Positions 1-62,800 of a stretch of DNA of 64,000 nt are shown here, piece by piece. The position numbers were made by a program, and so were the translations under genes. Each line of letters starts with the position of its first letter. Positions within the stretch are counted from its first letter, which is position 1. The notes under the pieces are model-generated. The model worked only from the letters and a program-made list of their open reading frames with translations. It was not told where the DNA came from and made no database searches. This DNA comes from Chiloscyllium plagiosum (taxonomy: Eukaryota), in assembly GCF_004010195.1 (NCBI RefSeq), contig NC_057737.1, positions 25,547,499-25,611,498 on the forward strand. The letters are read 5' to 3'.

Positions 1-205
1 CCTGACCTATCACCCTCACCTTGACCTCCTTCCACCTATCGCATTTCCAACGCGCCTCCCCCAAGACCCTCCTCCCTACCTTTTATCTTAGCCTGCTGGA
101 CACAATTTCCTCATTCCTGAAGAAGGGCTCATGTCCGAAACGTCGATTCCCCTGCTCCTTGGATGCTGCCTGACCTGCTGCGCTTTTCCAGCAACACATT
201 TTCAG
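1..205 (+). mobile_element. 3' terminal fragment of Penelope-like element family A, carrying a hammerhead motif
   Basis: Matches the end of the larger element at 61778-62800 (C-rich tract, CATTCCTGANGAAGGGC..GAAACGTC, then GATGCTGCCTGACCTGCTG..TTTTCCAGC). Confidence 0.75.
112..150 (+). ncRNA. Minimal type I hammerhead ribozyme motif
   Basis: CTGAAGA (117-123), extra A, stem II GGGC-TCAT-GTCC, GAAA (137-140), CGTC with GUC triplet; short stem I TC/GA. Confidence 0.7.
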
Positions 206-576
206 TTATAGATCAGGTAGCAATGTTTCGCCTTGAACAGGTGCTGATACCTGTAGTTGGTACTGCAGTGTTCTCCGCCGTCCTCATTTTATGATGTTAA
301 CAGCCAAAAAATATTCCTATGAAATGTAATTGTTGTGATTGTACTAAGTATTTTCTGTTTTGCTTTGATTACATTTACAAGTTGCATTGATAGCTTTCTT
401 TCTTGTTTTTCTTTCATGAGTTTAAGGAATTTGAAGTACAACTTTGTATCTGCATGCAATAATACTAATGACCTGTTAATATTCTGCCATCCCTTAGGCT
501 TCCATGGGAAAGTGGTAAGAGGGACATTCTTAGTCTGTCAGCAATTGCTTGCATTGTGGGGTTCCTTGGGTTCTTC

Positions 577-852
577 ATAGAATCATAGAATCTCTACAGT
601 ATGGAAACTGATCATTTGGCTAAGCAAGTCCACACTGACCCTCCAAAAAGTAATCCATCCAGACCCATTCTGCTACCCTATTGCTCGACATTTCCCCTGA
701 CTAATGCACTTAATCTGCGCATCCTTGAACGGTATGACCAATTTAGCATGGCCAGTTCAGCTAACCAGCACATCTTTGGACTGTGGGAGGAAACTGGAGA
801 ACCCAGAGAAAGTCCACACAGACACAGGGAGAATGTGCAAACTCCACACACT
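577..852 (-). mobile_element. HE1-like tRNA-derived SINE, 5'-truncated
   Basis: Reverse complement of the SINE body at 9484-9805; ends in a short tandem-repeat tail (CATAGAAT)2. Confidence 0.85.
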
Positions 853-2139
853 CAGTTGCTTGAGATTCTTCTGTTGCTATGGTGATGAGTAAATTGTTCA
901 AAAGCAAAAGACTAACATAAGGGTGCTTGATTGTTACATTCTGTTATGTGGCATTTGTTTGTGTGAGGATGTGATGACATAAAGCTTGGGCAATGATGTA
1001 ATAGTATTTGATATTCACTGCTGAGTACTAGGACAGAGCTGTTTACATTTTCCAATTATCAGCACCTCCCAAGAAGCATAATCATAGATTCATGGGAGTT
1101 GTCCGATCATCTGTGATCCTCCCCTTCAACATCAAGCATAGAGGAATCTGTGGAGGAACATTTAGGTAGAGCATGATGGTATGTAGGAGTTAGAAACCTG
1201 TGAATGAAATTTCCATCAGATGCCAATGGAAGGAATGTTTAGCCAGGAAAGGATATTGAGTCTAACTTGCAGAGTGTTCAACATTGAATGCAAAAGAATA
1301 GCTAAGCCTATGTTGATTCCCATAATAACATCCATAACTGGCAATACTGATCAAACTATTCAATAAGGTAAGATATATTTCATGTCGGAAACAGAGAGTC
1401 TGGTTTGTCTGGATCATTCAACAGCATCCCGAGCACACTTTTTTTTGGTTTCGTCTACTTTGTATATCTGCCGTACGTTTTTGGCTAACAAGGAGCCCAG
1501 AGATTTTTTTTTTTATTCTGAATTGTGTTAATTATCTGTGTCCATCTCTAGATGTTTGCTTTATTTGTGGAATATCTGAAGGTATTTATCATTACAGTTG
1601 AAGTTAGATTTGCCCAACAATTCTACCACTTTAAAGGATTTTTGTTCTTTTTCTTTTACTTTTGTTGTTTGGTAGCCAAACCGAGATTATTTTCAAAATA
1701 ATCTGTGTCAAAGTTATCTGTGTCAAAAGGATTGAATGCACAAAAAACTTGAAATTGTAAATTCTAATGATGCAACTTTTTTTTATATAAATAAGATGCA
1801 TGGTACTTCTCAGTTAAGTCAGTGCCCAACTAGTAAGAACGTGAAAATTAATTCTGAATCTTATGGTATTTTCTTCGGAAAATTTGATTTTGAAGCATGT
1901 TTTGAGGCAATTTCTCCATCAGGAGTCCTTTCTTGCATGTACCACCCAGTTGGTTTAAAAGAAAACAGGAAGAAAACCTAGAGTATTGTATCCCAATCCC
2001 ATGCTGGTGGATTCATTCTTCAATTTGTTTCTGTCCTGGTCTCTTGAAGATGATATGCATTACTTTTTGGTACCTTAATCTGTGGTCAAACCTTCTATGT
2101 AAGTCGAAGAATACATAGAAGAACGTAAACTATAGAACA

Positions 2140-4100
2140 GATATTGGAAGTCTGGAAAAAAAACAGGAAATGGAGGCAAATAAAAATAAGGGAACACAAT
2201 AGGGGCCATGGTTTTATGGTCTAAAATTGTTGAATTCCATGTTCTATGATTCCAGAAGGCTCTGAAGTGACAGGTTGAAAGAAAAGCAGCAGGCTGTAGA
2301 CAGAAATGTCAGTGTGAGAGGTCTGTAATTAAGATGACAGGTTGTTGGAAGCTCTGAGTCAAGCTTATGGACAGAATGGAAGTGTTCCCCAAAGCAGTCA
2401 CCGAATCTTGTTTGGTCCCTCACTGTAAAGTAACCGCATTCTGAGCTGCGAATATGGTAGTCTAGATTGAGAGAAATATACATAATTGCTGTTTAATTTG
2501 GGAGGGACTTGAATTGTGAGGTTATCTTCTGAGATACTTAGATGCTGTGGGAAGAGGACAAGATGACAGGAATGGAAAAGAGAATTGGATCATCTGTTGT
2601 GCTCCATACTTTTTGACTTCAGAAGGCAATGGTCTATTTGGAATGCTGGAGGCGGAGGAGAGGGGGAAGATGTGTTTGGTGGCTTTGCAATGAAGATAAC
2701 ATTATTTATTGAATATGTAAGCTAATAGGATATAAGATCAGAGCAAGGGGACCTGTCATAGTTATGGAATTGAAAGGGTTACAACAGAAGTATAATCAGT
2801 GTGATTGAAACAGATGGGACGATGATGGAGGAAAATCAACACAGAGTCATACAACCCATATCCCTCCAAACCTTTCCTATTTATGTATCTATCCAAATGT
2901 CTTTTTTTAATTTTGGGTTTTTTTCATGTTAATGAAACAAAATGGAAAAAATCTTGTTAGTAAAATTATGGCTGTAATGAGTGTTTGGTCTTTTTTTAAA
3001 TAAACTAATACATCTTTAATTAAGCCTGAAATCCCAGGAGCAGCTGCACGATCCATGCTGCTCTCTTTGGATCTCCAGAAGCATTTTTGTAGAAGGTTGC
3101 TTAATTACATCAGATGTAAAGGAGACTAAGGAACTGGGCAAATGAAATGTAGTCTTTACTTAGTCTAGAGTGTGAGGAAGTCAAGTCAGGGTAGGTATGA
3201 GAACACCTTCGGTTATGGGAGCATTTTATGAATTAGTCGATTAATGAGATGGAAAGTCAAGGAAAAAAAAAGGTGGCAATGAACCATATGAGACTGAGTG
3301 AAAGGTAGAATTATGAAACAATATTGAAATTTTCTCAATTCTGGATGAAATGTGACATGACACCAATATAATCGCCAGTGTTGACAAAGAGTTGAGGGAA
3401 AAGGTCCAATTACAACTGAAATAAGCCATGTTTAACAGGCATTTTTGTAAGCTAAGATTTGTGTGAGTATCTCTAGAACCTCTCTTTATTTGAAGTGAAT
3501 TGTTTTGAAAGACAAATTTTGAAGTGCTCATGGTGCACTGCTGGATGGGGACTGATTGGGTTTCAATTAAAGGAAGAAGCAGCTTTCAGACTGTCCTGTG
3601 GAGGGTGAGGGTATATATATTTTGGGTGTCTAGTGAACATCTGGGCAAGGAAATTTTAAACATTGCTGAAGCCCTCCCCCTTGATTTTAAGAGACATTGA
3701 TTTTAAGTGGGAAGAGATTAGACAAATGGAGAAAAGAGTCTAGGTATAGAGAAATCGGTTTGTTGGGGCTGAAACAGTACATCTACCGAGTCAACCTATG
3801 GATGGACTTTAGGAAGAAGATAGAAGTTAGCTAACAACGCTTTGAATCTGACATGGGAACCTGTGGATGGAAGCCCCTCGAGGTGATAAGGTCTGTGACT
3901 GTTGTGGAATCTTTGGCTTGAGGATCAATAATTGGGTCGCTGTCCAGGGATAGGTAGGAGAAACTGTTAAAATTGACATGCAACTTCAGCAAGGCCGAAG
4001 TCAGTTTTCCAGATGACAACAGCGCTACCCTTGTCCCTACGTTTGAAGACAAGGTTGGGGTTATACCTGAGCAAAGAGTGCAGTAAGTTCAGAAGGCAGG
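2140..4100 (-). mobile_element. Highly decayed retroelement, probably Penelope-like
   Basis: Purine-rich + strand with patchy resemblance to the reverse complement of the PLE at 61778-62800; no intact ORF; boundaries approximate. Confidence 0.35.
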
Positions 4101-4139
4101 TAATAGAGAACTCATGAAAGTCTAGGAATTGCAATTTAA

Positions 4140-5345
4140 AAAGTGACTAACCATGTGCAGAATCCTAAGAGGACTTGACATGTGGATGCTGAAAGATATT
4201 TCTTCTTTTGAGAAAGAATTGACATAACAGATGCACTTTAAACTTAAGAGGTTTCCTATTTAAGACTGAGATGAATTTTTTTGAACTCTCAAAATTTGTG
4301 AATCATTGAAATACTCTTCCCAGCAAGCAGTGGAGGCAGAGTCGTTTTTCAGATAGAAGTAAATGATTCACTAACCAGGGACTCAAAGATTGTTTGGGGT
4401 AGATAAAAATGTACAGGTGAGGCCACAATCAGAGTAGCCACAATTCTGCTGGTTGGTTGAGCAGACTAGATGGGCCAAATAGCCTACTCCCAATTCAAAT
4501 GATAGTATGAATGTAGCTTTTCCCAGTATGTCAAAATTTTATAAGCACTTTAATCTGTGAGGAGGATGGTGTAAAGCTGCAAAAGAACATTAATAAGCTC
4601 ATGGGTTGAGCAGTTATGTGGTAGATGAAGTTCAATGTGAGATGATACATCTTGGTCAAAAGAACATAGAGATGCAGTATTAAATGAATCACACGCAGTA
4701 GCAGAGAGACATAACTTGTATGTATATAAGTAATTAAAAGTGGTAGGGCATGTAAAACACGTATTTAATAAAGCATTCAGTATTTTGGGCTTTATTAATA
4801 GTCACAGACCACATGAGCAGAGAAGTTAAGTTGAATACACTAGTTGGACCTCAGCTGCTGCATTTTGTGTGCCACACTGAAGATGTGAATTCACTTGTGT
4901 ACAGAAGAGGTTTATGGAAGTGGCTCCAAGAATGAGATACTTCCATTATGAATATAGATTGGAGAAGCTGGGACTGCTTTCCTTGGGGAAGAGAAGACTG
5001 AGAAGTTTGACAGAAGTTTTGAAAATTATGAGAGTCCTGTACAGAGTTGTTGAAAATTGTTCCCGCTTTATAAGAAGTTTGAGAACATTGAGGTGCAGAT
5101 ATAAGGTAATTTGCATAATCAGATTTGATGTGAGCAAAATCTTTTTACAGAGTGAGTAGTTAGGCTGTGAAATGCAGTGCCTGCAAGCAGGTCAGCTAAG
5201 GCATTCATGAGAGTGTTCGATAACAATTTAAGTAGAAATAATATTCAGGGTTATTTGGGGAAAAAAAAAGTTGGCACAAGTCATTAACTCATTCAGAAAA
5301 TTGGTGCAGACACGATGGGCCAAACAGCTTCCATCTGTACTGTCA
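4140..5345 (+). mobile_element. Two decayed CR1 LINE 3' fragments in tandem
   Basis: ORF 4914-5159 has YEYRLEKLGLLSLGKRRLRSLTEVLKIM, typical of the CR1 ORF2 C-terminus; tails GATGGGCCAAA at about 4470 and 5315. Confidence 0.75.
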
Positions 5346-5969
5346 GAATTTGTGATTAAAATGGTGATTATTAGAGTGTATAGCAGAACTCCTTTTAATA
5401 TAACGCACACAGAGAGGGGGTGGGGGGAGTGTGATCGAATTGTTCTTAAAAATGATGTGGTTAACCCTTTTGATTACCTAAATTGTAAGAACATAAACAT
5501 GATTGGTTTATGAGCATTGTGAGCAAATTTGTCACTAATTCCTGAGATATTTTGTCATGTTTTTGATCTTGAGCTTTTTTCTCTTGAAATCTCTGGATTT
5601 ATGTTTGTCTAGTAGCATGCATAAATATATTGTTAAACAGGCTAAAACTTTCTATTTCACCGTTAGCTAATACTTCTTGGTTTGCAGTGGAAAGTAAATT
5701 GACGATGTAGCTTGTTTGTCTACTTAAGGTGATAAATTTTCAGCTGCCTAATGTAGAACCAAAAGTATTACAAAAGTTGTTTTTACTTCTGAAGTACTTT
5801 TGTACGGTTGTCTGTTTGAGGTGTAATCTCATGCAGCTTTCTCATTGACATTTTGTTTTCTTTTTCAGATGTGTTTTCCTGTTTTGGTGCCATGGAATTG
5901 ATTTAAAAGCAGATTTGTAAGAGACTATTTTGATATCTGGATCAATAACTATCTTAGTGATATTTCAAA

Positions 5970-6826
5970 ATGGTAGGCAAATTAAAACAGAACTTATTAT
6001 TAGCATGTTTAGTGATCAGCTCACTAACTGTATTTTATCTTGGCCGTTATGCAATAGAATGCCACCATAGAGTAGAAGAGCATACGCAGCAACATTCTAA
6101 CATTCTAGATAGTGGCAGATCATTACGTTACATTTCAAAATCTGGATTCAAAAATAGTTCAAGTAGACTTGTTTACAACAAAGACATGCCATTAATATTT
6201 ATTGGAGGAGTACCAAGAAGTGGCACCACACTCATGAGAGCAATGCTTGATGCCCATCCTGAAATTCGTTGTGGCGAGGAAACCCGGGTTATTCCTAGAA
6301 TCCTTGCAATGAAACAAATGTGGAGCAGATCTGGCCGAGAGAAACAGCGATTGGATGAAGCTGGTGTTACTGATGAGGTGCTGGACTCGGCCATGCAAGC
6401 CTTTTTATTAGAAATCATTGTTAAACATGGGGAACCTGCTACGTACTTATGCAATAAAGATCCATTTGCTCTCAAATCATTGACTTATTTGAGCAAAATT
6501 TTTCCCAATGCCAAATTCATTCTAATGATACGGGATGGACGTGCTTCAGTACATTCCATGATTACTCGGAAAGTTACCATAGCAGGATTTGACCTCAGCA
6601 GTTACAGAGACTGTCTGACCAAATGGAACCGTGCTATTGAGACCATGTATAATCAATGTTTGGAAACTGGGTTTAATAAGTGTTTACCAGTACACTATGA
6701 ACAACTCGTTTTGCATCCTGAAACTTGGATGAAGAATGTTCTGAAGTTCCTAGGTGTTCCTTGGAATACAGCAGTATTGCATCATGAAGAAATGATAGGG
6801 AAAGCAGGAGGTGTTTCTCTTTCTAA
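5970..6826 (+). CDS. TPST1: TPST1 first coding exon (exon starts 5869 after TTTTTCAG; donor AA|GTAAGT)
   Basis: [25 protein letters not shown] type II membrane anchor, as in vertebrate TPST1; PAPS-binding motifs [10 protein letters not shown] and RDGRASVHS; ends AGGVSLSK with a phase-2 intron. Confidence 0.97.
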
Positions 6827-10726: not shown

Positions 10727-10925
10727 GGTTGAGCGATCTACTGATCAAGTCATCAAACCAGTCAATGTTGAAGCCTTGTCAAAATGGGTGGGAAAAATTC
10801 CGCATGAGGTAGTTCGTGAAATGCCAGTGATTGCACCTATGTTAGCAAAGCTTGGATATGATCCATATGCAAATCCACCCAATTATGGAAAACCAGATCC
10901 AGCAGTTATTGAAAACACTAAAAGG
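10727..10925 (+). CDS. TPST1: TPST1 second coding exon (199 nt)
   Basis: TTACAG acceptor, GACTAAC branch point at 10681; G completes the AA|G Lys codon, then [13 protein letters not shown]...[15 protein letters not shown]...NTKR; donor GTAGGT. Confidence 0.96.
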
Positions 10926-17823: not shown

Positions 17824-18506
17824 TATGTATATTTCTGCTCAGCAATGAGATCTTCTGATTCCTTTAATGTATCCAGTGTTTCACTGATATTTCGTCCTCT
17901 GTGGTAAAGCTTTGTAATGATTTGTCTACATACCTGAAGATTTGTATCTCCGGGACCTTGGAGTTTTATTTTTCGTGATCTGACTCAACCGTAGCGAACT
18001 GTCACCCAATACTGAGACTGATGTTTCTGTGTTTTAAATTCTCTTTCATAGTCTTACACTTTCAGCTTGATGGTCCAGAATCACTATTTCTATTTCTGTG
18101 GAAATTTTCCTTTTGCAGGATCTTTTTGTTTTTGAGGTGGTAGCAGTGTTGTTAACTTACAATATTTTCTAAAGTTTCTCAACTGGCCACACTTATAGCA
18201 CACAGTTCCCAGCTGGATATTTGTTTTACTTATGATTCTGTTTGAAGTTATACTTTGTATTAGCTAATATGGTGGATGATAATTCTTTCTCGTTTGGCAA
18301 GCTTTCAAGAGGGTGATAATACTAATGTTGGGCCGACCCATCAGTTGTGTTCAGAATTTCCAATGTAGATCCACTGCAGAACAATTTTGGGCCCTGATAT
18401 CTGCTTGCACAGTGAATTGCATTGCCTATTCCAACATTAAATCTGCCTTGGATTGGAGAATGTCTGTCTGAAATTCTCATCCCTATCATTAGCTACTGTA
18501 TGGCCT

Positions 18507-19414
18507 GTTGTGGTTCTGTTCGCTGAGCTGGGAATTTGTGTTGCAGACGTTTTGTCCCCCTGTCTAGGTGACATCGTCAGTGCTTGGGAGCCGCCTGTGA
18601 AGCGCTTCTGTGATGTTTCCTCCGGCATTTATAGTGATTTGTATCTGCCACTTCTGGTTGTCAGTTCCAGCTGTCCGCTGCAGTGGCTGGTATATTGGGT
18701 CCAGGTCGATGTGCTTATTGATTGCCTCTAGGAATGCCTCAGACAACAACTCACCAGGACAAAGGACCCGATACCCAGCATGAGCAAAACCAATGTAGTG
18801 TACAAAATCCCATGCAAGGACTGAACAAAACACTACATAGGACAAACAGGAAGACAGCTAATGATCCGCATCCATGAATACCAACTAGCCACNNNNNNNN
18901 NNNNNNNNNNNNNNNNNNNNNNNNNNNNNNNNNNNNNNNNNNNNNNNNNNNNNNNNNNNNNGTGGCTACTAAGGATAGCTGGTCGTGTCGTTTCGTGGCT
19001 AGTTGGTATTCATGGATGCGGATCATTAGCTGTCTTCCTGTTTGTCCTATGTAGTGTTTTGTTCAGTCCTTGCATGGGATTTTGTACACTACATTGGTTT
19101 TGCTCATGCTGGGTATCGGGTCCTTTGTCCTGGTGAGTTGTTGCCTCTAGGAATGCCTCAGACAATCAATAAGCACATCGACCTGGACCCAATATACCGG
19201 CCACTGCAGCGGACAGCTGCAACTGACAACCAGAAGTGGCAGATACAAATCACTATAAATGCCGGAGGAAACCTCATAGAAGCGCTTCACAGGAGGCTCC
19301 CAAGGACTGATGTCACCTAGACAGGGGATGAAACGCCTGCAACACAAATTCTCAGCTCGGCGAACAGAACGACAACAACGAGCACCCGAGCTACAAATCT
19401 TCTCTCAAACTTTG
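18507..19414. mobile_element. Penelope-like element family B insertion with inverted segments (spans an assembly gap)
   Basis: GIY-YIG region (VVYKIPCKD..HYIGQTGRQL; INKHIDLDPIY) in both orientations; 13-bp target duplication TACTGTATGGCCT at 18494-18506 and 19415-19427. Confidence 0.88.
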
Positions 19415-24140: not shown

Positions 24141-24157
24141 CAACCCACCTATACCCC

Positions 24158-35240: not shown

Positions 35241-35279
35241 GTTAATCTTGTCCAGTCAGGGAGCACTAGCTGACAGATA

Positions 35280-42775: not shown

Positions 42776-43080
42776 TGCTGTGGTTCTGTTCGCGGAGCTG
42801 GAAGTTTTTGTTGCAAACGTTTCGTCCCCTGTCTAGGTGACATCCTCAGTGCTTGGGAGCCTCCTGTGAAGTGCTTCTGTGGTGTTTCCTCTGGCATTTA
42901 TAGTGGCCTGTCCCTGCCGCTTCCGGTTGTTAGTTTCAGCTGTCCGCTGTAGTGGCTGGTATATTGGATCCAGGTCTATGTGTTTGTTGATGGAGTTTGT
43001 GGATGAGTGCCAAGCTTCTAGGAATTCCCTGGCTGTTCTTTGTTTCGCTTGCCCTATAATGGTAGTGTTGTCCCAGTCCC
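42776..43080 (-). mobile_element. PLE family B 3' fragment
   Basis: WDNTTIIGQAKQRTAREFLEAWHS..INKHIDLDPIY; duplication AGATCACCTAT on both sides. Confidence 0.9.
42811..42854 (-). ncRNA. Minimal hammerhead ribozyme motif (family B), intact core
   Basis: Minus strand reads GCA-CTGAGGA-T-GTCACCT AGAC AGGGGAC-GAAA-CGTT-TGC. Confidence 0.7.
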
Positions 43081-44011
43081 AGATCACCTATGTTAGGGGA
43101 TTCTGTAGTCTGAGGTACAGACAGATGTTTCTGTGGCCAGCAGAGAAAAAGCAGAATGTTGTGTTGCTTCCCTGGTGCCAGGATCAAGGATGTCTCAGAG
43201 AGGGTGCAGAATGTTCTCACAGGGGAAAGGGGCCAGCAAGAGGTCATTGTCCACATTGGAACCAACGATATAGGAAGGGAAAAGGTTGAGGTTCTGAAGG
43301 GAGATTAGAGAGAGTTAGGCAGAAATTTAAAAAGGAGGTCCTCAAGGGTAGTAATATCTGGATTACTCCCAGTGCTATGAGCTAGTGAGGGCAGGAATAG
43401 GAGGATAGAGCAGATGAATGCATTTATTCCTGCATTTGAGGAACCTTTTACAAGCATCTTAACTGATTTTGTTTTAGGTAGGGGTCCTAACACAAAGTGG
43501 TAAATTAAACTGCATTTATTTCAATGCAAGGGGCCTAACAGGGAAGGCAGATGAACTCAGGGCATGGTTAGGAACATGGAACTGGGATATCATAGCAATT
43601 ACAGAAACATGGCTCAGGGATGGGCAGGATTGGCAGCTTAATGTTCCAGGATACAAGTGCTACAGGAAGGATAGAAAGGGAGGCAAGAGAGGAGGGGGAG
43701 TAGCATTTTTGATAAGGGATAGCATTACAGCTGTGCTGAGGGAGGATATTCCCGGAAATACATCCAGGGAAGTTATTTGGGTGGAATCTTGAATACTGTA
43801 TAAAGCTTTAGCCTGCTATTTTAAAAAGGTCATAATTGCATTAGAACCATTTCAGAAGAAGTTCACTTGATTGATTCCTGGGATCAAGGTTTATGTTATG
43901 AGGAATGTTTGGACATTTGAACCTGTATCTAGCAAAAATATAAGATCTTTAGGAGCCTTGACAATGTGGCAGCTGAAAGAATACTTCCTCTTTTGTGAGA
44001 GACTAGAACCA

Positions 44012-44626
44012 GCGAGTTTTGAGAAGATTTAGAGCTCAGGTTGAGGTTCTGGATGTAGGATGGCTCGGTGAACTAGAAGGTTCAGTTACAGACGTTTTGT
44101 CACCAAACTAGGTAACATTATCAGTGAGCCTTTGGATGAAGCACTGTGGTATGGCCGACTTTTTATTTGTGTTTAGGTTTCCTTGGGTTGGTGATGTCAT
44201 TTCCAGTTCTTTTTCTCAGTGGGTTATAAATGGGATCCAAGTCAATGTGTTTGTTGACGTGACCCACTCTCACTAGTATCTTTACATACTGATGAGGAAG
44301 GACACCAGTTCGACTGGGACAACACATCCACCCTAGGACAAGCCAACAGAGACATGCACGAGAATTCCTAGAAGCATGGCATTCCAACCAGAACTTTATC
44401 AACAAACACATTGACTTGGATTCCGTTTACCACCCCCTGAGAAAAACAACTGGAAATGTCATCACCACAGGAAATGATGTCACCAACCCAAGCAAACCTA
44501 AACGCATAAATAAAATGTGGGATATACCACCAGTGCTTCATCCAGCGGCTCAGTGATGATGTTACCTAGTATGGTGACAAAACATCTGAAACCAAACCTT
44601 CCACCTCAGCGAGCAAACCTACATCC
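44012..44626. mobile_element. PLE family B variant with inverted terminal segments, inserted in an old CR1 fragment
   Basis: About 44012-44256 on minus and 44257-44626 on plus (HAREFLEAWHS, INKHIDLD); 12-bp duplication AGACTAGAACCA at 44000-44011 and 44627-44638. Confidence 0.88.
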
Positions 44627-46168
44627 AGACTAGAACCAATTTAAAAATAATGAGTTTCTCATTAAAGATGGTGAGGAGGAGAATTTGCTTCCCTCAGACC
44701 GTCAGGAGTCCGTGGAATTCTTCCCTAGGGAGCAGTGCAGGCAGGGTCATTGAGTGTTTTGACAGCAGAAATAGATAAGTTCATTGACTAGCAAGGGAAT
44801 AAAAAGTTATCAAGGTATGTAAAAAGTGGAATTATTCTGCACTTGGATTAGCCATCATTAGAGCAGATTTGAGAGGTAGAATGACCTATATGTAATTCAA
44901 ATATTGTGTGTGGCATTTGATATTGTAACTCTGAAGGATCACAATTCAAAGCTGAAGAGTGCAGTGTCTAAAGAACAGATGATTAGGATAAAATAAGGAG
45001 TTTATCAATAGACCAGAACATTTGCCTATAGGATGAGCTTTTGCTGACCTTCCTGTATTCTGTTGATAACCAAAATCATTTTCCGGTTTTGGAGCAGAAA
45101 CTCTGGTTAAGTCTTTAAAGACAAAAGTGAATGTGAAATAGGTTATTCGCTTATCGTTAAATTGAAAATTCAGCATTATTGCCGCCACTAGTTTGCATTA
45201 AAATGACTTTATGAAAATTAAATAAATGTTGGCATATCCTTGATATGACACCTAATACTTAAAATGCGTTTGTGCCACATTGTTAATGCATGTTTTGGTC
45301 ATAAAGCTGCTCTTACTGATATAGAAGGTACTTTACTTCAGAACAGGTTTAGCACAGCAGTAAACAAAAAAAAAATGGCAGTTGGAGAAAGTAATAAATT
45401 AACAAAGCTGCTCAAGGTAAAGCATAATTTGTCTAATAGGTGGAATTGCTGATCTAAAACTAATAGGCTGCATTATGTTACCATTGTAGCTTGTCTTCTA
45501 TACTTAATCAGTTAAGAAAAACATAATAGCAACATTGTATAAGAAGTCGAAGGAGAAAATTGGCACTGAGCTAAACTTTGTGAGTATCTTAAAATATCCC
45601 AACACTCCAGCCCAAAACCAGAGAGGTGACATTAGGGCTGGAGTGAACTAAATAAAGATTTTAATATTCCCCCAAAGTTTAGTTTTGGAAAATTGTTTTT
45701 TACACTAGATGCAGCAGTCATAGTGCAACTCCAAAGAGTAGAAAGTGGAAGATACTGGCTGAAAAGGACTGAAAGGCAGTAGTCACGCACATAAAATATA
45801 GAGATTTAATATATATTGGATTCAAAATGATCAGTGTGGTAATGGCAAGTTTATGCAATATTAATGATATATTTGACTTCTAGCAAATTAGTTCATTTTT
45901 TCCATCACAATTAAGTAGTCCTTAACTGCCTTCTAGAAAATGGCAGTGAGCTTCTTTGATGAATGCAGTTGTGTGGCATGCTGAGTTATTTCAGAGAGCG
46001 GCACAGTTTCAGGAAGTTTGGAGTCACATATAAGCTAGACGGTTTTAAAGATTGCAAATATCCTCCCTTAAAGGATGAGTGAACCTAATGAATTTTCACA
46101 GCAATGCATTAGTTTCATGGTCACCAAAAGAGATTCTATCTTTTTTTTCCCAGATTTCCAGGTATCAG

Positions 46169-47042
46169 TGTGAGAAACAAAGCTCACACACTTCAATAAT
46201 TGCAGTCCGAGACAAAATCTGAATCAGTAGTGTCCTTTATTTTACTCTTGCAAGAGGGTGTGATGTCCGGTGTCTACAAGGCAAGGGACACACACACCAA
46301 ATTCAATGAATACACAATATTTATATAATTTGTTTTTTTTTCATTGCTCCTCCCCTGTTTATATCTTCCACTTCCCTAAGATCGGCACCCATTACTCCTG
46401 TTTATCTCTTGCCTTATCCGGCCTTATCTGTGACAAAATGCTTATTTCTGGCCTCACAAGGCCGTTTGACCTCATCCCGCTGTAGGTCATTGTTAGGCAT
46501 ATTCTTTCTTCACCATTATCTACTCTCTCCACCTGTACCTTCTCCTGATCCTTATGACCCTTTTAATTGGGGTTTGTTCCTGTGTNNNNNNNNNNNNNNN
46601 NNNNNNNNNNNNNNNNNNNNNNNNNNNNNNNNNNNNNNNNNNNNNNNNNNNNNNNNNNNNNNNNNNNNNNNNNNNNNNNNNNNNNNNNNNNNNNNNNNNN
46701 NNNNNNNNNNNNNNNNNNNNNNNNNNNNNNNNNNNNNNNNNNNNNNNNNNNNNNNNNNNNNNNNNNNNNNNNNNNNNNNNNNNNNNNNNNNNNNNNNNNN
46801 NNNNNNNNNNNNNNNNNNNNNNNNNNNNNNNNNNNNNNAATATCTACCATTGTTTTGCAGTCACGTTTCATTCTTGCATACAATTTTAGCTAATACAAAA
46901 ACAATTATGTATTTCCTCCACATAGTTTCCATTCTTGTTGACTCAGCTCTTGGCTAAAACAATTACACACTGGTGTGAGTTCATTTACTTTGTATAAGTA
47001 ATTAGAATTGCAGAAGTAACACTATTTTTCCTACATCCCACA
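46169..47042 (-). mobile_element. Solo LTR, same family as 41766-42510 (contains an N gap)
   Basis: TGTGAGAAAC...CCCACA termini with a TCAG duplication; colinear with the first copy. Confidence 0.8.
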
Positions 47043-47056
47043 TCAGGAATAAAAGA

Positions 47057-48535
47057 ATGACTCTCTGGGAAGCCAGGGAGGAAATTGCAGAGCCTTTGTC
47101 TTTGATCATTATGTCATCCTTGTCGACAGGAGTAGTGCCAGAAGACTGGAGTATAGCAAACGTTGTTCCCTTATTTAAGAACAGGAGTCGGGCAAACCCT
47201 GGTAATTATAGGCTAGTGAGCTTTACTTCAGTTGTGGGTAAGGTGTTGGAAAAGTTTATAAGAGAGAGGATTTATAATCATCTGGAAAGGAACAATTTGA
47301 TTAGGGATAGTCATCACAGTTTTGTGAAGGGTAGGTCGTGCCTCACTAACCTTATTAAATTCTTTGAGAAGGTGACAAAGCAGGTAGATGATGGTAAAGT
47401 GGTTGATGTGGTGTATATGGACTTCAATAAGGCATTTGATAAAGTTCCATACGGTAGCTACTGCACAAAGTATGGAGTTTCAGGATTGATGGTGATTTAG
47501 TGGTTTGGATCAGAAATTGGCTAACTGAAAGAAGACAGGGTGGTGATTGATGGAAAATGTTCATCTTAGAGCTCAGTTGCCAGCGGTGTGCCACAAGGAT
47601 CTGTTTTGGGGCCACTGCTGTTTGTCATTTTTATAAATGATCTGGATGTGGGCATAGAAGGATGGGTTAATAAATTTGTGGATGACACTTAAGTAGGCAA
47701 AGTTGTGGATAGTGTTGAAGGATGTTGTGGGTTATAGAGGGACATAGATGAGATGCAGAGCTGGGCTGAGAAGTGGCAAATGGAGTTTATTGCAGAAATG
47801 TGTAAGGTAGTTCACTTTAGAAGAAATAACAGGAATGCAGAATACTGGGCTAATGGTAAAGTTCTTGGCACTGTAGATGAACAGAGAGATCGTGGTGCAT
47901 AAATCCTTGAAATTTGCCACCCAGGTTGATAAGGTTGTCAAGAAGGCATATGGCGTGTTGGCTTTTATTGGTAGTGAGATTGAGTTTCAGAGCCACGAGG
48001 TCATGCTTCAGCTGTACAAGACATTGGTTAGACTGCACCTGGAGTATTCTGTACAGTTCTGGTCACCGCATTATAGAAAGGATTGAAAGCTTTGGAAAGT
48101 ATTCAGAGGAGATTTACAAGGATGTTATCTGGTATGGAAGGAAGGTCTAACGAAGAAAGACTGAGGGAACTGAGGCTGTTTTCGTTTGAGAAAAGGTTGA
48201 GAGGTGACCTAAGTGAGATGTATAAAATAATCAGAGAGTTAGATAGGGTGGACAGTGAGAGCCTTTTTCCTCAGATGGTGAAGGCTAACACGAGGGGACA
48301 TAGATTTAGGACAGATATTAAGGGTAGTTTCTTCACTCAGTAGTAGGGGCTTGGAAGGGCCTGCCTGCAACAGTAATAAACTCGCCGACATTGAGGGCAT
48401 TTAAATGGGCATTGGACATACGTATGGATAATAATGGAATGGTGTAGGTTAAATGGGCATCAGATTACTTTCACAGATTGGCACAACATCGAGGGCCGAA
48501 GGGCCTTACTGCCCTGTAATGTTCTATGTTCTATT
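47057..48535 (+). mobile_element. CR1 LINE, 5'-truncated
   Basis: PEDWSIANVVPLFK, GRSCLTNLIKFFE, VYMDFNKAFDKVP, LVRLHLEYSVQFWSP; tail (TGTTCTA)n. Confidence 0.93.
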
Positions 48536-49759: not shown

Positions 49760-52100
49760 ATTCAAAGAAGCATCACTAACGCAACCAACCATGAATGGAC
49801 AACTACACTAGAATGAGCTTTCAGATTAAACAACAGCAGACCAGGACAAGGAAGGGAGACTGGCCCTATAAGAAAAACTAACCAAACTCTCACATAGCAA
49901 TGACATGAACAAATCAGAGCCTGGATAAAGAACCTATCTGACCAACTACACTCATACTGAAAAAGCTGTCCTAGTATGAGGGATAAACTACAACCACAGG
50001 GATGTGGACAAAAAGGACTTTCTGGCAGCACTGGAATCTATCCTAAAAGACAGCAGACTTACAGAAGAAACCCAACAGGCCATCAGATAGATGGTAGTAC
50101 TAACACTAAGCAGAAAGAAAGAAGTGAACATCCTCAAGATGCTTGTAGGGAAAGCCCTAGAAAGACACAAAAGACAGAAACATTGTAATCCTACCTGCGG
50201 ACAAAGGGTGCATGACCGTCATCCTGAACAGAACACCGTGTTGAGGAACCTCAATTATCTGGAATTCGACTATCCAGCAAAATCACAAGGTTCCGATGCG
50301 TGGCTAAACTATGTTATCTGGCATTTGATTTTTCGGAATTTGATTAACCGAACGAAATACTTGCCCGCCTGTGTCCTTCGGATAATTGAGGTTCTTCTGT
50401 ACATTGAAAAAGTGAACTTGCTACTAACCAACACCGATACCTACCAACAGTTAGCGATGGACCCAACTCCACAGCTAGAGAATCACCTGAGGAAACTACA
50501 CAAGACCGGTGAACTTAACAAGACAGACCTCCAAAGAATGAAACCAGAAGGATCTAACACTCTGTTTCTACAGATTACCAAGGGAACACAAACAAGGACC
50601 CCCGCCCCGGATCCATAATCTCAATTCCTGGCATACTGACATACAGGCTAGCAAAGGAACTGCAATGAAAACCAAAACACCTGGTAGAAGACTCAACCCA
50701 TTCCATCCACTCCACCCAGGAATTCCTTAACATCATCAAAGACGTCAAGATAGTGGACAATAAGGTCATGGTTTCCTTCGACATAACGGCCCCATCAACA
50801 AACATCATCCTAGCTAAAGAAACACTGGTCTCACTGTGAGATAAACCAAGGATACAAACCCTTAACAGCAGCAACTCCATCAGCAAGGAAAGCATCCTCA
50901 AACAACTGGACCTGTGCCTCACACCCACTTCACTTTCAATAACAACATGTACAAACAAATCAACGGGACACTTATGGGGTCACCAATATAAGAACTTATA
51001 ACGGAAGCAGTTTTGCAAAGGTTAGAATGAACAGCCATTCCCACGATCTAGCCTAAGCTTTGAGTCTGCTACATAGATGATAACTTTATCATCATGAAAT
51101 GTGACAAGCTGGAAGAAACCCGCAAACCTACAAACAGCATTCTCACCGATATGAAGTTCATAAAGAGAAAGAGCAATAACCGACACCCCTTCTTGGACGT
51201 CATAGTAGAATGATAAGCCAATGAAGAACTGCAGACCAGTGTTTACAGGAAAACCACACATACTGATCACATACTCAACTACAGAAGCAACCATCCCAAC
51301 ACCCACAAATGAAGTTGCATCAGGACACTATTCATATGAGCCACAACACACAGCAGCAACCTGGAACTATAAGAAGCCGAGGAGAAACACTTATCTGCTA
51401 ACCATTGTTCCTGAAGAAGTTGTATATGTGCAGTCCACCGATTCCTGCACAACGGACCTAAGCAGGAAGACTCAACATGCCCAGAGACTGTAGTCACCCT
51501 ACCATACATCAAAGACATCAGAGAAGACCATCAGACTACCCTGGCCCCTGGGCATCAAGGTAGCCCATAAATCTACTACCACACTAAAAACTCCTGATTA
51601 ATTTAAAGGACCCCATACCCACAGCTAGCAGAATGAACATGATATACAAATTACCCTGCAAGGACTGCAACAAATATTACATTGGACAAACTGGCAGGAA
51701 ACTAGCCACCAAAAGACATGACCAACTATCGCTGGTATCCATACACACAGACAAAGAAGGACACCAGTTCGACTGGAACAATGCAACCTGGGATAGGCAA
51801 ACCAAGACATGCACGGGAATTCCTAGAGGCCTGGCATTCAAATCAGAATTCCATTAACAAACATCAATTTGAACCCCATTTACCAACCTCTCAGAACCAG
51901 AAACAAAAATGATATCACCCACCACAACAAACCAAGAAAAATAGATAGAAACTGGGACAGAACATCAACACTTCATCAGAGGCTCACCAATGATGTTACC
52001 AGGCATAATGATGAAATGTCTGAAAGCAAACCCACCAACTCAGCGAGCAAACCAATAACCTGATCCACAACCTGAGCTACAAATCTTCGTCAAGATCTCA
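49760..52100 (+). mobile_element. Long decayed Penelope-like element (RT plus GIY-YIG endonuclease), family B variant
   Basis: Frameshifted RT motifs (MVSFDIT, YKQINGTLMGSP, YIDD, HTDHILNY.SNHP) and IYKLPCKDCNKYYIGQTGRKL; terminus like 44012-44626. Confidence 0.9.
50234..50399. mobile_element. Tigger-like MITE nested in the PLE
   Basis: GAACCTCAATTATCTG / CGGATAATTGAGGTTCTTCTG+TA, related to the TIRs at 17682-17823. Confidence 0.7.
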
Positions 52101-53354
52101 AATCTAATTAAATGTTTCAGATGTAAATGAAGGTAGGTAGTAGCTTGAACATAGCCATCAATGTGACAGAGGAAGCCTGAGTAGTATTCAGTGAAGACAT
52201 TTCCAACAAAGATTTATGCACAACAGACACCACATGTCCTTTTATTATTGCTGGTTCTATAAAGGGTGTGAGTGGACTAGAGAGATAATGTTTGCAATGA
52301 GAGTGACTTAACCTAAATGAAGGGAGATGATGTAATATGTAGATGATTGAGGTGATCGAGGGCTTCCAATGATAAAATACTGGAATTAAATTTTACAGGA
52401 AATCTGCTCACATGGAAAATTACAGTGATGGCTAAAGAATCTGAATCAAAGATGGAGAATGTTAAAATGCATGGATGTCGGTAATTCGAAATGAGACTTA
52501 AATTGAGATATGTGGAATCTAGTTTAAAGGGATAAAGTGGACAGCAGTAATAGATCTGCTGGCCCATTCCACACGAATAGATTTTCATAAAAGTTAGAAA
52601 CTGTAGATTTAAAACTCTTGTTGAAGGCATTGGAAATTGGGGAAGGGTAATTTTTTTTCAAAATAGTTGAGATAGTCTAGGAAATAATTTAGTGATCAGT
52701 TATGCAAGTTTGGATCTAAGCCTGTTGGGAAATTGACCTGAAATTTTCCTTGTGGATAAAGTTCATTGGCTACTAAGTCTCATACCTCATTCCAACCCCA
52801 GTACCATTCGTCCCTCCTTTTATATTTATTCAGTCACTTAATTGATCAATTAGTGATCAGTAGCTTAATTCTTGCATACTGACAAATAGTGGGATAGGGA
52901 ATAGCCCAGGGAAAATACAAAGAGAAGGAATCATAGACAATAGGATGTTTTTCACAATGCAGCACAGGTCCTATGTCAACAGGTATACTGATGCTGAGAA
53001 CATCATATTCAGAATTGTTTCAAAGTGAGTAAGCACAGCTTAGATGGCTAATATTGGGGGTTTTGAATCTCACAAAAGATCAGACAGTGGCAAAGGACAC
53101 AGAGGAGTCCTGGAGGAAGTACAAGATTAGAAACAAGGAATATATCAAATTACTCAAAAGTACAATCTCATCTGTAGTACGTATGGAGTTTAGAACAAAA
53201 TGTCAGAATTGGGAAGATAAGATCGAAGAGATGGTTAAATATCGATCGGAGTAGGGCTGAGGTTGAAGAGATTTGAATTTACAACCTCTGGGATATTCTA
53301 TTGTCATTTTCCTCTTTGGTAATTTCACCATTGGAAATTGAGGCAATGATTTTT

Positions 53355-55690: not shown

Positions 55691-55814
55691 GTTAAAAAAA
55701 AGGCCTCTCCCCTCTTTATCTGCCCTGTCTTTATTTTACTCTTGGGAGATTACATACCCATAAGAGATTTGAAGCTGTCTAATCATAATGCTTTAATCAT
55801 CAGGACTGTGGCAG

Positions 55815-55903
55815 AAACAAAAACAGAAGTTGCTGGAAAAGCTCAGCAGGTCTGGCAGAGAAATCAAAATTAACGTTTCGGGTTTGGTGACCCTTCCTCC
55901 GGA
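55815..55903 (-). mobile_element. Short PLE-derived terminal fragment with a decayed hammerhead
   Basis: Minus strand reads CCGGAGGA-A-GGGT CACCAA ACCC-GAAA-CGTT; similar, more decayed pieces near 34365-34480 and 58110-58230. Confidence 0.6.
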
Positions 55904-57286
55904 GTGTGGCAGGGTTGTTGGCTCACTTGGACTGTTCCTGTCTGTCATTCTCATATGTTGGCAGACCACAGTGGCTTAATCTTACCTTACTTTAATACTC
56001 TTTTAGACATCCTTTCTTATCATTTATGTAGTTTGTATATGCCTTTTCCCTTATTGAATGTTCCTGTAACTTTTTGTTTTCAGAGATTATGTAGCTATTG
56101 AGGGTTGAGAAAAATCTAGTGATGATGATGCTTTTGTTTGGATTTAATTTTAAATTCATCCGTTTATTAATTCATGGCAATTCATTTTGGTTAATCTGTT
56201 CTTATTTGCATCCTTAGATTAATTCTCATTCAGCATCATTTTTATGACAATTTAGTTTAGATAAAGGTGAAAGTTTTGTGGTCATCATTACTGAGACTTA
56301 TTTTCAATTTTCATTTTTTATTTATTAAACTTAGGCTCAAAGCCCACCACAGCAATTGATGAAATCTGTGTTCCCAGACTGTTCCCTATGTTAACCTGGA
56401 CGACCCTAGATTACTAGTCCAATGATATAACCACATCATCGCCATCTTCCCCTGTTACTTTCGATTTTTGTATTTGTGTATCCGTCATCGCATTTATGTG
56501 CATATTTCACGCATCGTGATTTAATCCTTGTGATCACTACTGTCTAGATGTTTTATTTCTGTTCAATTTTTTAAAAGATATCTCCAGTCTCTTCGCTTTT
56601 AAGGTTTAGATTATATGTCTTCTACATTTTCCTATCCCTTTTCCCAAAAGAAAATCCTTTCTTATTCCATCTCCATTACAAGAAAAACAGTCGCCTTGTA
56701 ATGTCACTCAAGCAAATCTTGAATTTTTTTCCCCATTTGTAGCATTTAGGAAAACTTATTTTTGTTCATTTAAGATAAGTTGTCTGAAGTAGGTAAACAG
56801 CTTAGAAGCATGAGAGCTGTATGTACACAGTTATTTACAAGAATAAAGAAACAAGAACATGGCTCACCACACCTCGAGCGATTGGATAAAAATTGTTCAT
56901 TTAGTCCGCAAAGCCCAGATCCAATGTAAAAATAAACAAAATTTGTAACCATTATTTTGGGTTTTCTCTTATGCTAAAACAAATAACCCATGTGTGTTGC
57001 TAATCCACATGTTAAAAGTTTCCAGTTTTCACATTTTGTTTATTCCACTTCAACTTTAGAGCTTTTCTTGTAGCACAATCTTCCACAACCAAATTGGAAT
57101 TTTTGTTTTAGTTCATAATACTAAATCAAATTTTACCATAACATAATTGAATCTAACACAAAGTGGCTGATGTTTCACAAAAGAGCAGTCAGAACAATTT
57201 TTGTAAATAATTTGTAAATTGTAGTTTATCATTTTTCAAGAGGAACTGCATTAAAAAATATTCTATTGTATTATGTTTTGCTGCAG

Positions 57287-57298
57287 GTGAGATCCTAA
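57287..57298 (+). CDS. TPST1: Probable TPST1 terminal exon coding part (VRS*), followed by a 3' UTR to about 57935
   Basis: TTTTGCTGCAG acceptor; in-frame GTG AGA TCC TAA; repeat-free AU-rich tract ending in ATTAAA/AATAAA. An unseen small exon in between cannot be excluded. Confidence 0.55.
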   Translation: MRS

Positions 57299-57914: not shown

Positions 57915-58879
57915 TTTTAACACGATAAGTTGTCTGCATCTGAAATATAGGAGTAAGTGAGGACAAAGTCTGAAAAGTGACAAGTTAGTGTGTTCACACC
58001 ACTTAGTTGTAAAATATTAGCTCATAATATATGTCAGCAGTAAGGTTGAAGCAAGAAATTGCACCTAACCTTCAGGCAAATGTTCACCCATTTCCAAGTA
58101 TAACTTGAATAAAAGCAAAACGTTGCAAATGCTGGAAATCTGAAATTTACAGAGTGCTGGAAAAACTCACCAGATCTGGCAGCATCCATGGACAGAATAT
58201 AATTAACATTTCAGGTTATCATTTCTTCAGAAACCTGAGGTTAACATGTTGCGAGATCAGCTGAGTTACTCCATTCTCTGTTTGTTTCTAATGCAACTCA
58301 CTCTTGCTATAATGTACTTTTTTGTTTGCATAAATCTTAGACCATGTTCTTGACTTGGCAGGCTTTTCTTATGAGTGGCGTATATATTCCAGTCAAGAGT
58401 CTTTTTGTCATTTGCAATTCCAGGAGAAGATTGCATATTACAGATATTGTTCAGTACATTTATGATTGTTATTTTATAGGAAAAGGACATTCCTGTTCTG
58501 GGCCTGAAAATAACTTTGGTAGTGGGAAAGTGGAGATAACCTCAAAATTATAATAACAATTGTTTTCCTAATTGTGTTGCACCTCCAGCAAGAAGGATGT
58601 ACCATTCCAGGGCATTCTGCAGATGATACTTCCCCCATGACCCTTCGCTCATAGATGTAGAATAAGCACTGAAAACAAATCTGTAATATTCTTGTCTGAA
58701 TTAACCATGGTAGAGAATCAGCCTGAAATAATTTAGCAACCTCATTAATGCCAAGAATATTTCCAGATGAGCTGAGGAGGTTAAAACCGTATTGACATGG
58801 ATGATGTAAATGAGCAACCTCTTGTATTTTTCCTGAAATTGTTACAATATTTTAAGTATGGGGTTTGCTGGGGGAGAGA

Positions 58880-59734: not shown

Positions 59735-60335
59735 AGAGGTTATTAAAAACAGCGATTCCGAAAAGTCCAGGTTTGAAGGGTTTTAGGGCCAGTTTGATTA
59801 TTGCTAACAGATTTGCCTCAAGCAAAAGTTTTCAAGTTTTTAAAGAAACACTTGTACACTGAAGCGGGTGTGGCCAGTTCTCCCAGCTCAGCTTTACTCT
59901 GGTTTGGTTTGGTTTTAGCAGTCTAACTATTCACTGAAAACAGTCAGTCATTGTGAAGCTGCTGGACCCACAGAAGCAGGTCCATGCTGATCCTCCCTCT
60001 TTCTGACATCTCTCCTGTAAGACCCTGTGTTTGATTTTTTTTTCGTTTTGTGCCAAGGGGTGTTTATGTGGTTTGTTGCAAGTATTTGGAACAGCATCAT
60101 TACGGTGGGATAATCAATTGGGTTTTCAGATAACTTAAGTTATTCTATATTTTGTTCACTTTTATTTATGTTTGATTTGGTAATCTTGTAAATAAATTGT
60201 TTTGTTTAAAACTAGTTTGACCAGCTGCATAACTCCTGGAATGTCCATTCTACGCCTGCTTAAAACAACTAGCAAAATTTGGGTCTGGGCTACTTCCTTG
60301 AAATGTTTTGAGGGGGTCTGGCCTGGTCCATAACA
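59735..60335. mobile_element. Possible solo LTR
   Basis: Distinct TG-rich block with AATAAA ending ..GGTCCATAACA; left boundary uncertain and no second copy in the window. Confidence 0.35.
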
Positions 60336-61487
60336 AGGAACATTTACATTGGTTAAGGAACATAGTCATATGCAAGGATCCTTCTGTATTTCACAAATAA
60401 GCAATGTTTTCAAGTCTTGCACTTTCCAAATTACCTAGGAATTTGGGGAATCTTTAATTCCTATTGCTTTCTCTATGCCACTACCTTGGTCAATCACATA
60501 CAACTTGCTGACTGAAATTTTGGCATTCTTGTATTTATCCTGATACATGCGAGACAAAAAGCTTCAGTGACATAGCTCTCCCTGAATGTATTCTAAACTT
60601 AGGTCTTTCCATCACAGAATAGTTTATTGTTGCACTTCAAAGTTGTGTGTTGGGTTTTAAAAATAAATCAATAGCCTAATAAGAAATATATATGTTATGG
60701 ATTACCTAATTTCTATTATAGCTGTTTTGCAGAAAGTAAAGGTATATACTTTGTGCAGAACAGCGGAACCAGGATCACGTGGAAAGGTTGCATAGCAGCA
60801 TTTCAAAAAAAACTTTTTTTACTTCCAAAATCATCTGCTACAGAAGACACAACTTCAAATCTGCTGAAAAGTGTTAAGAGCAACTTGAGTAAGGAACTGA
60901 TCGTTCTATACTTGCGCAATAAAAGCAGAGACTCGTGCTTCATGAGTTAGCACTTAAATTGCTGATAATTGTAGCTATATAAAATTCTTGTTTGTTCAGC
61001 AAGATAAAGGTTATAGACAGGTTTTTATGAAGGTCAAACACTGTTTTTCTGTTGATTAAAACTAACTGAATAAGTTTCTAATTTCCTTTTTTCTCCTTTG
61101 TTTTAAAACATAAGTTATACAATTCCTAAAATCTCTTGAGTATTGTTGAATCTATCCACAGTAATCAAACTCAATGGCATCTCTACAAGTTAACTTCAGA
61201 TCCCTCTAGATTAGAGAAAGAAAATAATCTAAGGTGTTTTTGCTTGTGACTGTAATCTAACTGCTGCCTTGAAAAAGACCCACTGAGATTTTTCTTGTTT
61301 CAAAGATTAAATTGCTTGCAGTACTCATGATTTAGGGTCACACTTAAAAATGATATGCATAGAAACTGTCAAATTTAGTTTTCATCTATTGTTTATCTTG
61401 TTTCAAGTTATTTAAGAGTCGATTTTGTGCTCCACAGCTGGAGTGGGAAGTGAGATGTTGGGGGTCCATCCATGAGAAGGCTGCACA

Positions 61488-61777
61488 GGGCATAGGTTTA
61501 GGGTGAGAGACATAGAAGAGACCTAAGGGGTAGCTTTTTCACGCAGAGGGTGGTGCATTTAAGGAATGAGCTGCCAGAGGAAGTGGTGGAGGCTGGTACA
61601 ATTACAGCACTTAAAAAGCATCTGGATGGGTTTATAAATAATTTAGGTATATGAAGGGTTTAGTGGGCAATAGGTTAAGTGCTGGCAAATGGGACTAGAT
61701 TAGGTTAGGATATCTGGTTGGCATGGACGAGTTGGACCGAAGGGTCTGTTTCCATGCTGTATATATCAATGACTCTG
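61488..61777 (+). mobile_element. HER1/CR1 3' fragment
   Basis: Matches 35490-35775. Confidence 0.88.
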
Positions 61778-62800
61778 TGACATCCCAGATGGCCTCCTGT
61801 TTCTAGAACTGCAATTTCCCCTCCCATCTGATCAACGATGCCCTCCAGTGCATCTCCTCCACTTCCTGCACCTCCACCCTTGAACCCCACCCCTCCAACC
61901 ACAACAAGTATAGAACCCACTGGTCCTCACCTTCTACCCCAATCTCGAGATACTGCACATTATCCTTCACCATTTCAGCCACTTACACCCAGAGACATAT
62001 TTCCTTCCCCTCTGTTCCACAGAGATCATTCCCTCTGTGACTGCCTCATTAGGTCCATGCCCCACACCAACCCACCCTCCACTCCAGGCACCTTCCCTAG
62101 CTGCCACAAGAGGTGTAAAACCTGCACCCATACCACCTCCCTCACCTCCATCCAAGGCCCCAAAGGATTGATTCACATCTGGTCGAGATTTTCCTGCACG
62201 GTCAACCCACCTCATCTACTGTGTCCATTGCTCTCCTCTACATTGGGGAGACAGAACACCAACTTGCGGAATGTTTCAGGGACATCTCTGGTACACAACA
62301 ACCCCACCGCCCCATTGCCGACCACTTCAACTCTACCTCACACTCCCCCAAGAACATGCAAGACCTGGACTTCTTACGTCACCAAATCCACGCCACCTGA
62401 CAACTCAAGGAAGAATGCCTCATCATCTGCTTTGTCCCCCTTTAACCACACAGCATCAACATTGACTTCAGTAGTTTCCAAGTCTCCCACCGCCCTCCCC
62501 ACCTCATCCCAGATCCTACTCTCCAACTCAGCACCGCCCTGTTGACCTGATCTACCTGTCCATCTTCCTTCTCACCTATCTGCTCTGCCCTCCCCACTGA
62601 CCAATTATAATCACTCCTCCACCTGCATCCACATATTGCTTTCCTGGCTACCTCCCCCCAGCCCCACCCTCACCATCTTATTTATCTCTCATCCCTTTCC
62701 CCCCCACATTCCTGATGAAGGACTTATGCCCGAAACGTCTACTCTCCTGTACCTCAGATGTTCCCTGACCTGCTGTGCTTTTCCAGGGCCACACTTTTTG
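61778..62800 (+). mobile_element. Penelope-like element family A 3' portion (Cys-rich linker plus GIY-YIG remnant, Neptune-like)
   Basis: PGTFPSCHKRCKTC..RFSCT, then YIGET in a shifted frame; hammerhead motif at 62712-62739. Confidence 0.8.
62707..62742 (+). ncRNA. Minimal hammerhead ribozyme motif (core intact, stems slightly decayed)
   Basis: CTGATGA-A-GGAC TTAT GCCC-GAAA-CGTC. Confidence 0.6.

Follow-up and report, generated by a model that had tools for sequence, protein, structure and literature searches.

A 64,000-nucleotide stretch of the bamboo shark Chiloscyllium plagiosum (assembly GCF_004010195.1, contig NC_057737.1, positions 25,547,499 to 25,611,498 of the forward strand; hereafter the window, numbered from its first nucleotide) contains 13 minimal hammerhead ribozyme motifs in and around the gene TPST1. 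These are very probably the hammerheads that Penelope-like elements (PLEs) carry in their terminal repeats; most are broken, and we regard the copies that bear them as likely 5'-truncated and dead on arrival, likely neutral, and probably without action on TPST1 RNA. The motifs fall into families A, B (subfamilies B1 and B2) and C and are as follows, each site being named below by its first nucleotide on its own strand.

117-144, plus strand: family A, core and stems intact, N7 is A; the 3' end of a PLE copy that begins outside the window
18546-18580, minus strand: B1, broken by G12>A
19307-19337, plus strand: B1, broken by a 3-nt core deletion and U16.1>C
35070-35097, minus strand: family A, intact, antisense to TPST1
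35114-35138, plus strand: family A, 3-nt deletion in the core; the predicted hairpin pairs it along its whole length
38450-38477, plus strand: family A, G12>A and G16.2>A, stem II broken; a short copy with a tail
42816-42849, minus strand: B1, core and stems intact, H17 is U, antisense to TPST1
44091-44124, minus strand: B2, broken by G8>A and G12>A
44553-44586, plus strand: B2, broken by C3>G, G12>A and G16.2>A
51987-52020, plus strand: B2, broken by U4>C, G5>A and C15.2>U
55872-55901, minus strand: family C, U4>G, starting 3 nt after the 5' end of its insertion
58205-58230, minus strand: family C, decayed
62712-62739, plus strand: family A, core intact, a mismatch in stem II and another at the first pair of stem I; located past the TPST1 stop and before KCTD7

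The 11 sites of families A and B had been proposed in an earlier reading of the same DNA (the original prediction), and all of them were found where it had placed them or a few bases away. A strict pattern (CUGANGA-N10-24-GAAACGU) matched at 117+, 35097-, 62712+ and 42849- and never in 100 dinucleotide shuffles. A structure-aware scan that tolerated up to two core mismatches returned six matches, against a mean of 0.13 and a maximum of 2 in 60 shuffles; one of the six, at 19657-, lacks the palindrome and was rejected as a chance match. The whole core is kept in four of the 11 sites, those of the strict pattern, and the core together with both stems in only three (117+, 35097- and 42849-), while the broken cores carry 3-nt deletions (two sites) or substitutions (five). 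The prediction was thus right about the presence of the motifs and less so about their integrity. Its statement that family A uniformly reads CUGANGA-A, a 4-bp stem II, GAAA and CGUC does not hold at 35114, 38450 or 62712; its description of family B as often decayed does, with five of six sites broken. The division into two families was correct in separating A from B, but B splits further into B1 (18580, 19307, 42849) and B2 (44124, 44553, 51987), and family C, recovered by a relaxed scan (55901-) and by inspection (58230-), had been overlooked. Another family C-like tail lies at 34357-34490 on the minus strand, so heavily decayed that its core is not recognisable.

The architecture is the same throughout. 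The motifs have type I topology and a short helix I (3/4 pairs adjoining the core at the intact sites), and helix III is absent. An extra nucleotide follows A9 in nine of the 11 sites, A in family A and U in family B, the other two having deletions there; G10.1 is present in all 11 and C11.1 in nine. The ACGU palindrome is kept in seven, and CpG transitions account for three of the four losses. Stem I differs in sequence between A, B1 and B2, and stems I and II both pair in all three sequence contexts. An Rfam scan at E up to 10 gave six weak matches, none of them to a hammerhead, presumably because the motifs lack helix III.

The insertions that carry the motifs point to PLEs, as had been predicted. 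Eight insertion events account for the 11 sites, three of them back-to-back pairs. Those delimited at both ends or nearly so, together with the family C insertion, are listed here.

18494-19427: B1 back-to-back insertion, 13-nt target-site duplication (18494, 19415), GIY-YIG remnants, N gap at 18893-18961
35035-35250: family A back-to-back insertion with a target-site duplication of 10 nt; predicted folding of the sense RNA gives one long hairpin (-100.8 kcal/mol)
42765-43091, minus strand: B1 5'-truncated insertion, 11-nt target-site duplication, with the C-terminal end of an endonuclease open reading frame (ORF) that matches shark protein P0165 at 89%
44000-44638: B2 back-to-back insertion, 12-nt target-site duplication
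49827-52114, plus strand: decayed 5'-truncated B2 element with reverse transcriptase (RT) and GIY-YIG remnants of Penelope/Poseidon type; boundaries placed by a weak 8-nt duplication
55807-55912, minus strand: family C 90-nt insertion, 8-nt target-site duplication
61790-62798, plus strand: family A element, truncated on its 5' side (this boundary is approximate), with a frameshifted CX3CxxC linker and a GIY-YIG-like remnant (Neptune-like)

Target-site duplications were sought in eight insertions, namely seven of the eight above-mentioned events (the copy at 117 runs off the window) and the family C one; they measured 10-13 nt in four, 8 nt in two and 7 nt in one, and one insertion had none. 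Short and tail-extended 3' ends both occur in A, B1 and B2, and in the 18k and 44k pairs the tail is present on one arm only. Target-site duplication, an inverted truncated copy and an optional tail, all seen here, are features of EN+ PLE insertion units. Two of the pairs have further peculiarities. At 18735-19160 the B1 pair contains an additional internal inversion of its endonuclease segment around the assembly gap, where partial misassembly is possible; and the family A pair forms a near-perfect long hairpin at 35045-35170, a fold-back insertion in a likely TPST1 intron and a possible substrate for double-stranded RNA editing.

Coding remnants lead to the same elements. Family B remnants match shark proteins with RT and GIY-YIG domains (P0164, E 8e-112; P0165, E 1e-91), and Pfam returned RVT_1 and, weakly, GIY-YIG. 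In these remnants the RT is followed by a C-terminal GIY-YIG with two cysteines between its motifs, and no CX2-5CxxC linker was seen, which together with the protein matches fits Penelope/Poseidon; we infer this label, and the one for family A, from motifs in broken remnants and not from a tree. The 1-kb family A copy encodes CHKRCKTC (CX3CxxC) followed by IY..C..YIG with two cysteines, read by eye across frameshifts, and one of the four Atlas rows shown for this remnant is a GIY-YIG cluster at 0.93 (the family being on 21% of its members). A CX2-5CxxC linker before GIY-YIG is a Neptune feature shared with Nematis (Craig et al. 2021, PMC8557442), and family A is likely Neptune-like. A 20-nt motif from the family A tail gave 23 metagenome matches, which we set aside as chance, none exceeding about 26 nt or bearing the hammerhead motif, and no match in viral contigs. 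Apart from these elements, the model of a Chiloscyllium MAP3K7 isoform (P0166) has a piece of family B PLE endonuclease at its end, which suggests either exonisation or an artefact in the gene model.

The way in which the copies have decayed is what neutral loss would produce. Of 12 core substitutions, seven are CpG transitions, which fall at three of the 13 positions (p=0.009). Pairwise divergence of core and flank was 4/35 and 57/508 in B1, and 14/39 and 122/457 in B2, small counts from pairs that are not independent. In the four family A copies it was 6/78 in the core against 80/309 in the flank, again over non-independent pairs; their differing tails make these copies look like members of different subfamilies. 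Between families, nothing beyond the core, the palindrome and the pairing pattern is shared. The original prediction had called for an excess of core conservation within a family alignment; there is none among the B1 or B2 copies, and there is one between families and subfamilies. We consider that expectation mis-set because dead copies should decay neutrally. The pattern suggests selection on the parent elements followed by neutral decay of the inserted copies.

In the mechanism that we propose, the inserted copies would be dead-on-arrival, 5'-truncated pieces decaying neutrally, and any cutting would belong to an active tandem parent. There the ACGU palindromes of the two terminal repeats would pair to give a shared 4-bp stem III and a double hammerhead, in which the core of each copy would cut its partner, weakly, after H17 (GUC/GUU), probably aided by the element's own protein, as the data of PMC4209133 and PMC11167929 suggest.

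Several observations weigh against this interpretation. The window holds no full-length or tandem parent element. The double-hammerhead fold can be drawn, yet nearest-neighbour calculations made it less stable than the lowest dimer fold in all three dimers tested (-3.9 vs -16.5, -9.3 vs -24.6 and -15.9 vs -19.8 kcal/mol), although such instability would fit a need for a chaperone. The PLE identity of family A depends on a frameshifted remnant: Pfam was blank for its endonuclease, homology searches gave nothing or unrelated repeats and no usable relative, and a profile built on the family B endonuclease failed to reach it. Finally, across the likely coding span of TPST1, which is transcribed from the plus strand, the core is kept in none of five sense copies and in two of four antisense copies. 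This leans towards selection against intact sense motifs, but the imbalance does not reach significance (p=0.17, and p=0.44 once the family C site is counted).

One alternative concerns family B, in which the conservation of the core may partly be coding. The family B ORF continues through the core and stops in the stem II/loop II region (TAG in 42849-); P0165 ends in LPSTEDVT and matches 43081-42836 at 89%, and in one frame B1 ends T-E-D-V-T-stop and B2 S-D-D-V-T-stop. In another open frame, which begins M-S-P or M-L-P, A9-U9.1-G10.1 spells AUG (42816-42849, minus strand; 44553-44586, plus strand), so the extra nucleotide U9.1 may double as the U of a putative start codon for the following ORF copy. 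The core is the same in families A and C, where 9.1 is A, and a coding constraint would in any case supplement the ribozyme and not replace it. We treat a contribution of this kind as a tentative possibility, somewhat on the doubtful side.

A second alternative takes the motif to be mainly a structural or ribonucleoprotein signal marking the 5' end of a non-autonomous mini-element, a short RNA that is mobilised in trans without being cut; cutting would have a secondary role. Three short insertions of families A and C (the 35k pair, 38450 and 55901) begin about 3-8 nt upstream of C3, at 35101-35110, 38446 and 55904, instead of after the cut site, which implies that their templates were uncut there; and in vitro the Anolis element can insert without cleavage (Frangieh et al. 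2024, PMC11167929). The cases are few, however, and the 38450 boundary lacks a clear duplication. The copies were found through the motif, which biases towards such starts, and stalling of the RT at a structure would explain them equally well. Moreover, the 5' ends of family B lie in the endonuclease region, and A, B1, B2 and C all retain the catalytic positions. We think this explanation unlikely.

Any effect on the host would depend on how the sites lie relative to TPST1 and its same-strand neighbour KCTD7 (25617-63874), for which we identified the following exons.

5869-6826, plus strand: first coding exon of TPST1, acceptor AG at 5867-5868, ATG at 5970 (coding 5970-6826)
10727-10925, plus strand: TPST1 coding exon
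25617-25667, plus strand: 51-nt TPST1 coding exon
57287-57298, plus strand: likely terminal coding exon of TPST1, encoding VRS-stop behind a pyrimidine-rich acceptor
63749-63874, plus strand: first coding exon of KCTD7, 42 of 42 amino acids identical to Chiloscyllium KCTD7

The sequence LKDLPE-VRS-stop ends one Chiloscyllium punctatum TPST1 isoform, and AG-VRS-stop occurs once in the window, at 57287, with a pyrimidine-rich acceptor before it and the first AATAAA downstream at 57909; this is likely the terminal exon. A candidate at 26961 was rejected, as it matched weakly and solely an intron-extended isoform, the match at 57287 being better. The earlier claim that most sites are inside TPST1 is conditional on this exon: with it, nine of the 11 sites are intronic, and otherwise this is certain for just two. 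The acceptor lies 101 nt 5' of the ATG and positions 1-5868 hold no CpG-rich kilobase, so site 117 is probably in the first TPST1 intron, in agreement with the original placement of this copy in TPST1 pre-mRNA. Within the same gene, an alternative exon at 21577-21660 (plus strand) matches the ends of X1 isoforms in Chiloscyllium and Hemiscyllium, and an isolated CpG-enriched kilobase (27001-28000, observed/expected 0.7) lies in the likely last intron. Fused or read-through TPST1-KCTD7 protein models make up seven of 47 fetched proteins (P0003, P0131, P0135, P0146, P0149, P0154 and P0159) and come from four other cartilaginous fishes (Heterodontus, Mustelus, Rhincodon and Hypanus); none of the four listed Chiloscyllium or Hemiscyllium TPST1 proteins has this form, and a literature search in a limited library gave no paper on it. 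These models may be artefacts of annotation, or they may reflect read-through splicing that is conserved. ORF fragments at 40391-41159 (minus strand), 47006-47500 (plus strand) and 36366-36857 (plus strand) resemble what we take to be LINE reverse transcriptase and LTR-type pol.

The original prediction also implied an effect on TPST1 RNA, which the sites themselves do not support. A hammerhead domesticated by the host would be expected to be intact on the sense strand, to fold unaided and to be conserved at the orthologous site. None of the five sense copies within the coding span keeps its core and none has a helix III; site 35114 retains the palindrome and the cut-site half, but the predicted hairpin pairs all of it with its inverted twin; and 62.6 kb separate the two sense copies with intact cores, 117 and 62712. 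The host RNA is consequently unlikely to be cut, and it is from these facts that we infer the absence of a host-gene effect. One could still imagine that dead PLE hammerheads complement one another as heterodimers, 117 joining a second copy, whether in cis or in trans, and perhaps helped by PLE protein, that they cut TPST1 or TPST1-KCTD7 RNA, and that selection purges intact sense motifs from introns genome-wide; we rate this as highly improbable. Hardly credible is the more specific proposal that the dispersed copies heterodimerise in TPST1 or read-through TPST1-KCTD7 pre-mRNA, cut it and so tune expression or read-through. The presence of nine sites in the probable coding span, the integrity of sense copy 117, the substrate that 35114 could in principle offer, the read-through models and the orientation imbalance would all accord with it. 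Yet 35114 is locked in its hairpin 35 kb from 117, the distant 62712 is mismatched in stem I, and the listed read-through models are from other genera. Minimal hammerhead monomers are inactive and their dimers weak (PMC4209133), the Anolis PLE hammerhead requires protein and leaves no RNA-seq ends at its site (PMC11167929), and eight of nine Xenopus dimers were uncleaved (Li et al. 2026 preprint, 10.64898/2026.07.22.740005). As for chance resemblance, the imperfection of eight of the 11 sites and the lack of an Rfam hammerhead match are outweighed by the strict pattern's failure to occur in any shuffle and by the pairing of both stems in three sequence contexts, and we dismiss it.

The motif class is already known, having been described in 2014, and the bamboo-shark PLE families extend it, here at high density. 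Our literature search for PLE hammerheads in sharks, Chiloscyllium included, found no paper in a limited library, and sharks are unnamed in the portions of the main text and the two supplement files of PMC4209133 that were consulted. Craig et al. (2021, PMC8557442) and Frangieh et al. (2024, PMC11167929) describe the role of PLE hammerheads as still open. The abundance of copies in this genome permits cheap tests, of strand bias among intact intronic motifs and of where short copies start relative to the cut site, neither of which the window alone can settle.

Among known systems, the closest match in architecture is the minimal hammerhead of Cervera & de la Pena (2014, PMC4209133), whose definition includes a nucleotide between 9 and 10.1 and the palindrome. 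Like it, our motifs are of type I without helix III, with a palindromic 15.2-16.2, the extra nucleotide, a G10.1-C11.1 pair and a short helix I, and they occur mainly as single dispersed copies, with close opposite-strand pairs and several consensus families in one genome. Unlike the Schistosoma families in that paper, whose stem II has 7-8 bp, family A has a stem II of 4 bp. There the monomer was inactive and dimers were of low activity, and a 2019 review agrees on both architecture and activity. The original prediction was correct about the extra nucleotide after A9, the loop-less ACGU palindrome and the expected need for dimers, but over-valued as inference what is the published consensus. 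The non-LTR retrozymes (10.64898/2026.07.22.740005), found in one chondrichthyan and often in introns, likewise carry type I hammerheads related to PLE terminal repeats. They form head-to-tail tandem arrays, whereas no copy here is head-to-tail, neighbours being back-to-back or kilobases apart, and one of nine Xenopus dimers was cleaved.

With regard to the insertions, back-to-back copies and an optional tail are known for PLEs (Craig et al. 2021, PMC8557442; Fig. 2 legend), and the tail is described by Frangieh et al. (2024, PMC11167929) as well. As in the EN+ units of Craig et al., an inverted truncated copy adjoins the terminal repeat, a tail of 30-40 bp stands at one end, the target-site duplication is variable, and the CX2-5CxxC linker is present in A and was not seen in B; in contrast to the clades of that study, our labels come from motifs in broken remnants. 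The nearest experimental counterpart is the Anolis Poseidon element PAc, whose hammerhead cut only with protein, left no RNA-seq ends at its site and was dispensable for insertion in vitro (PMC11167929). PAc is active and was tested by experiment, whereas truncation and decay mark the copies in the window, whose AUG is putative. Family B shares with it the order RT, GIY-YIG, hammerhead and optional tail, and also an AUG where stem II begins, the distance from its A through H17 being 28 nt here, while PAc is cut 26 bp after its start codon.

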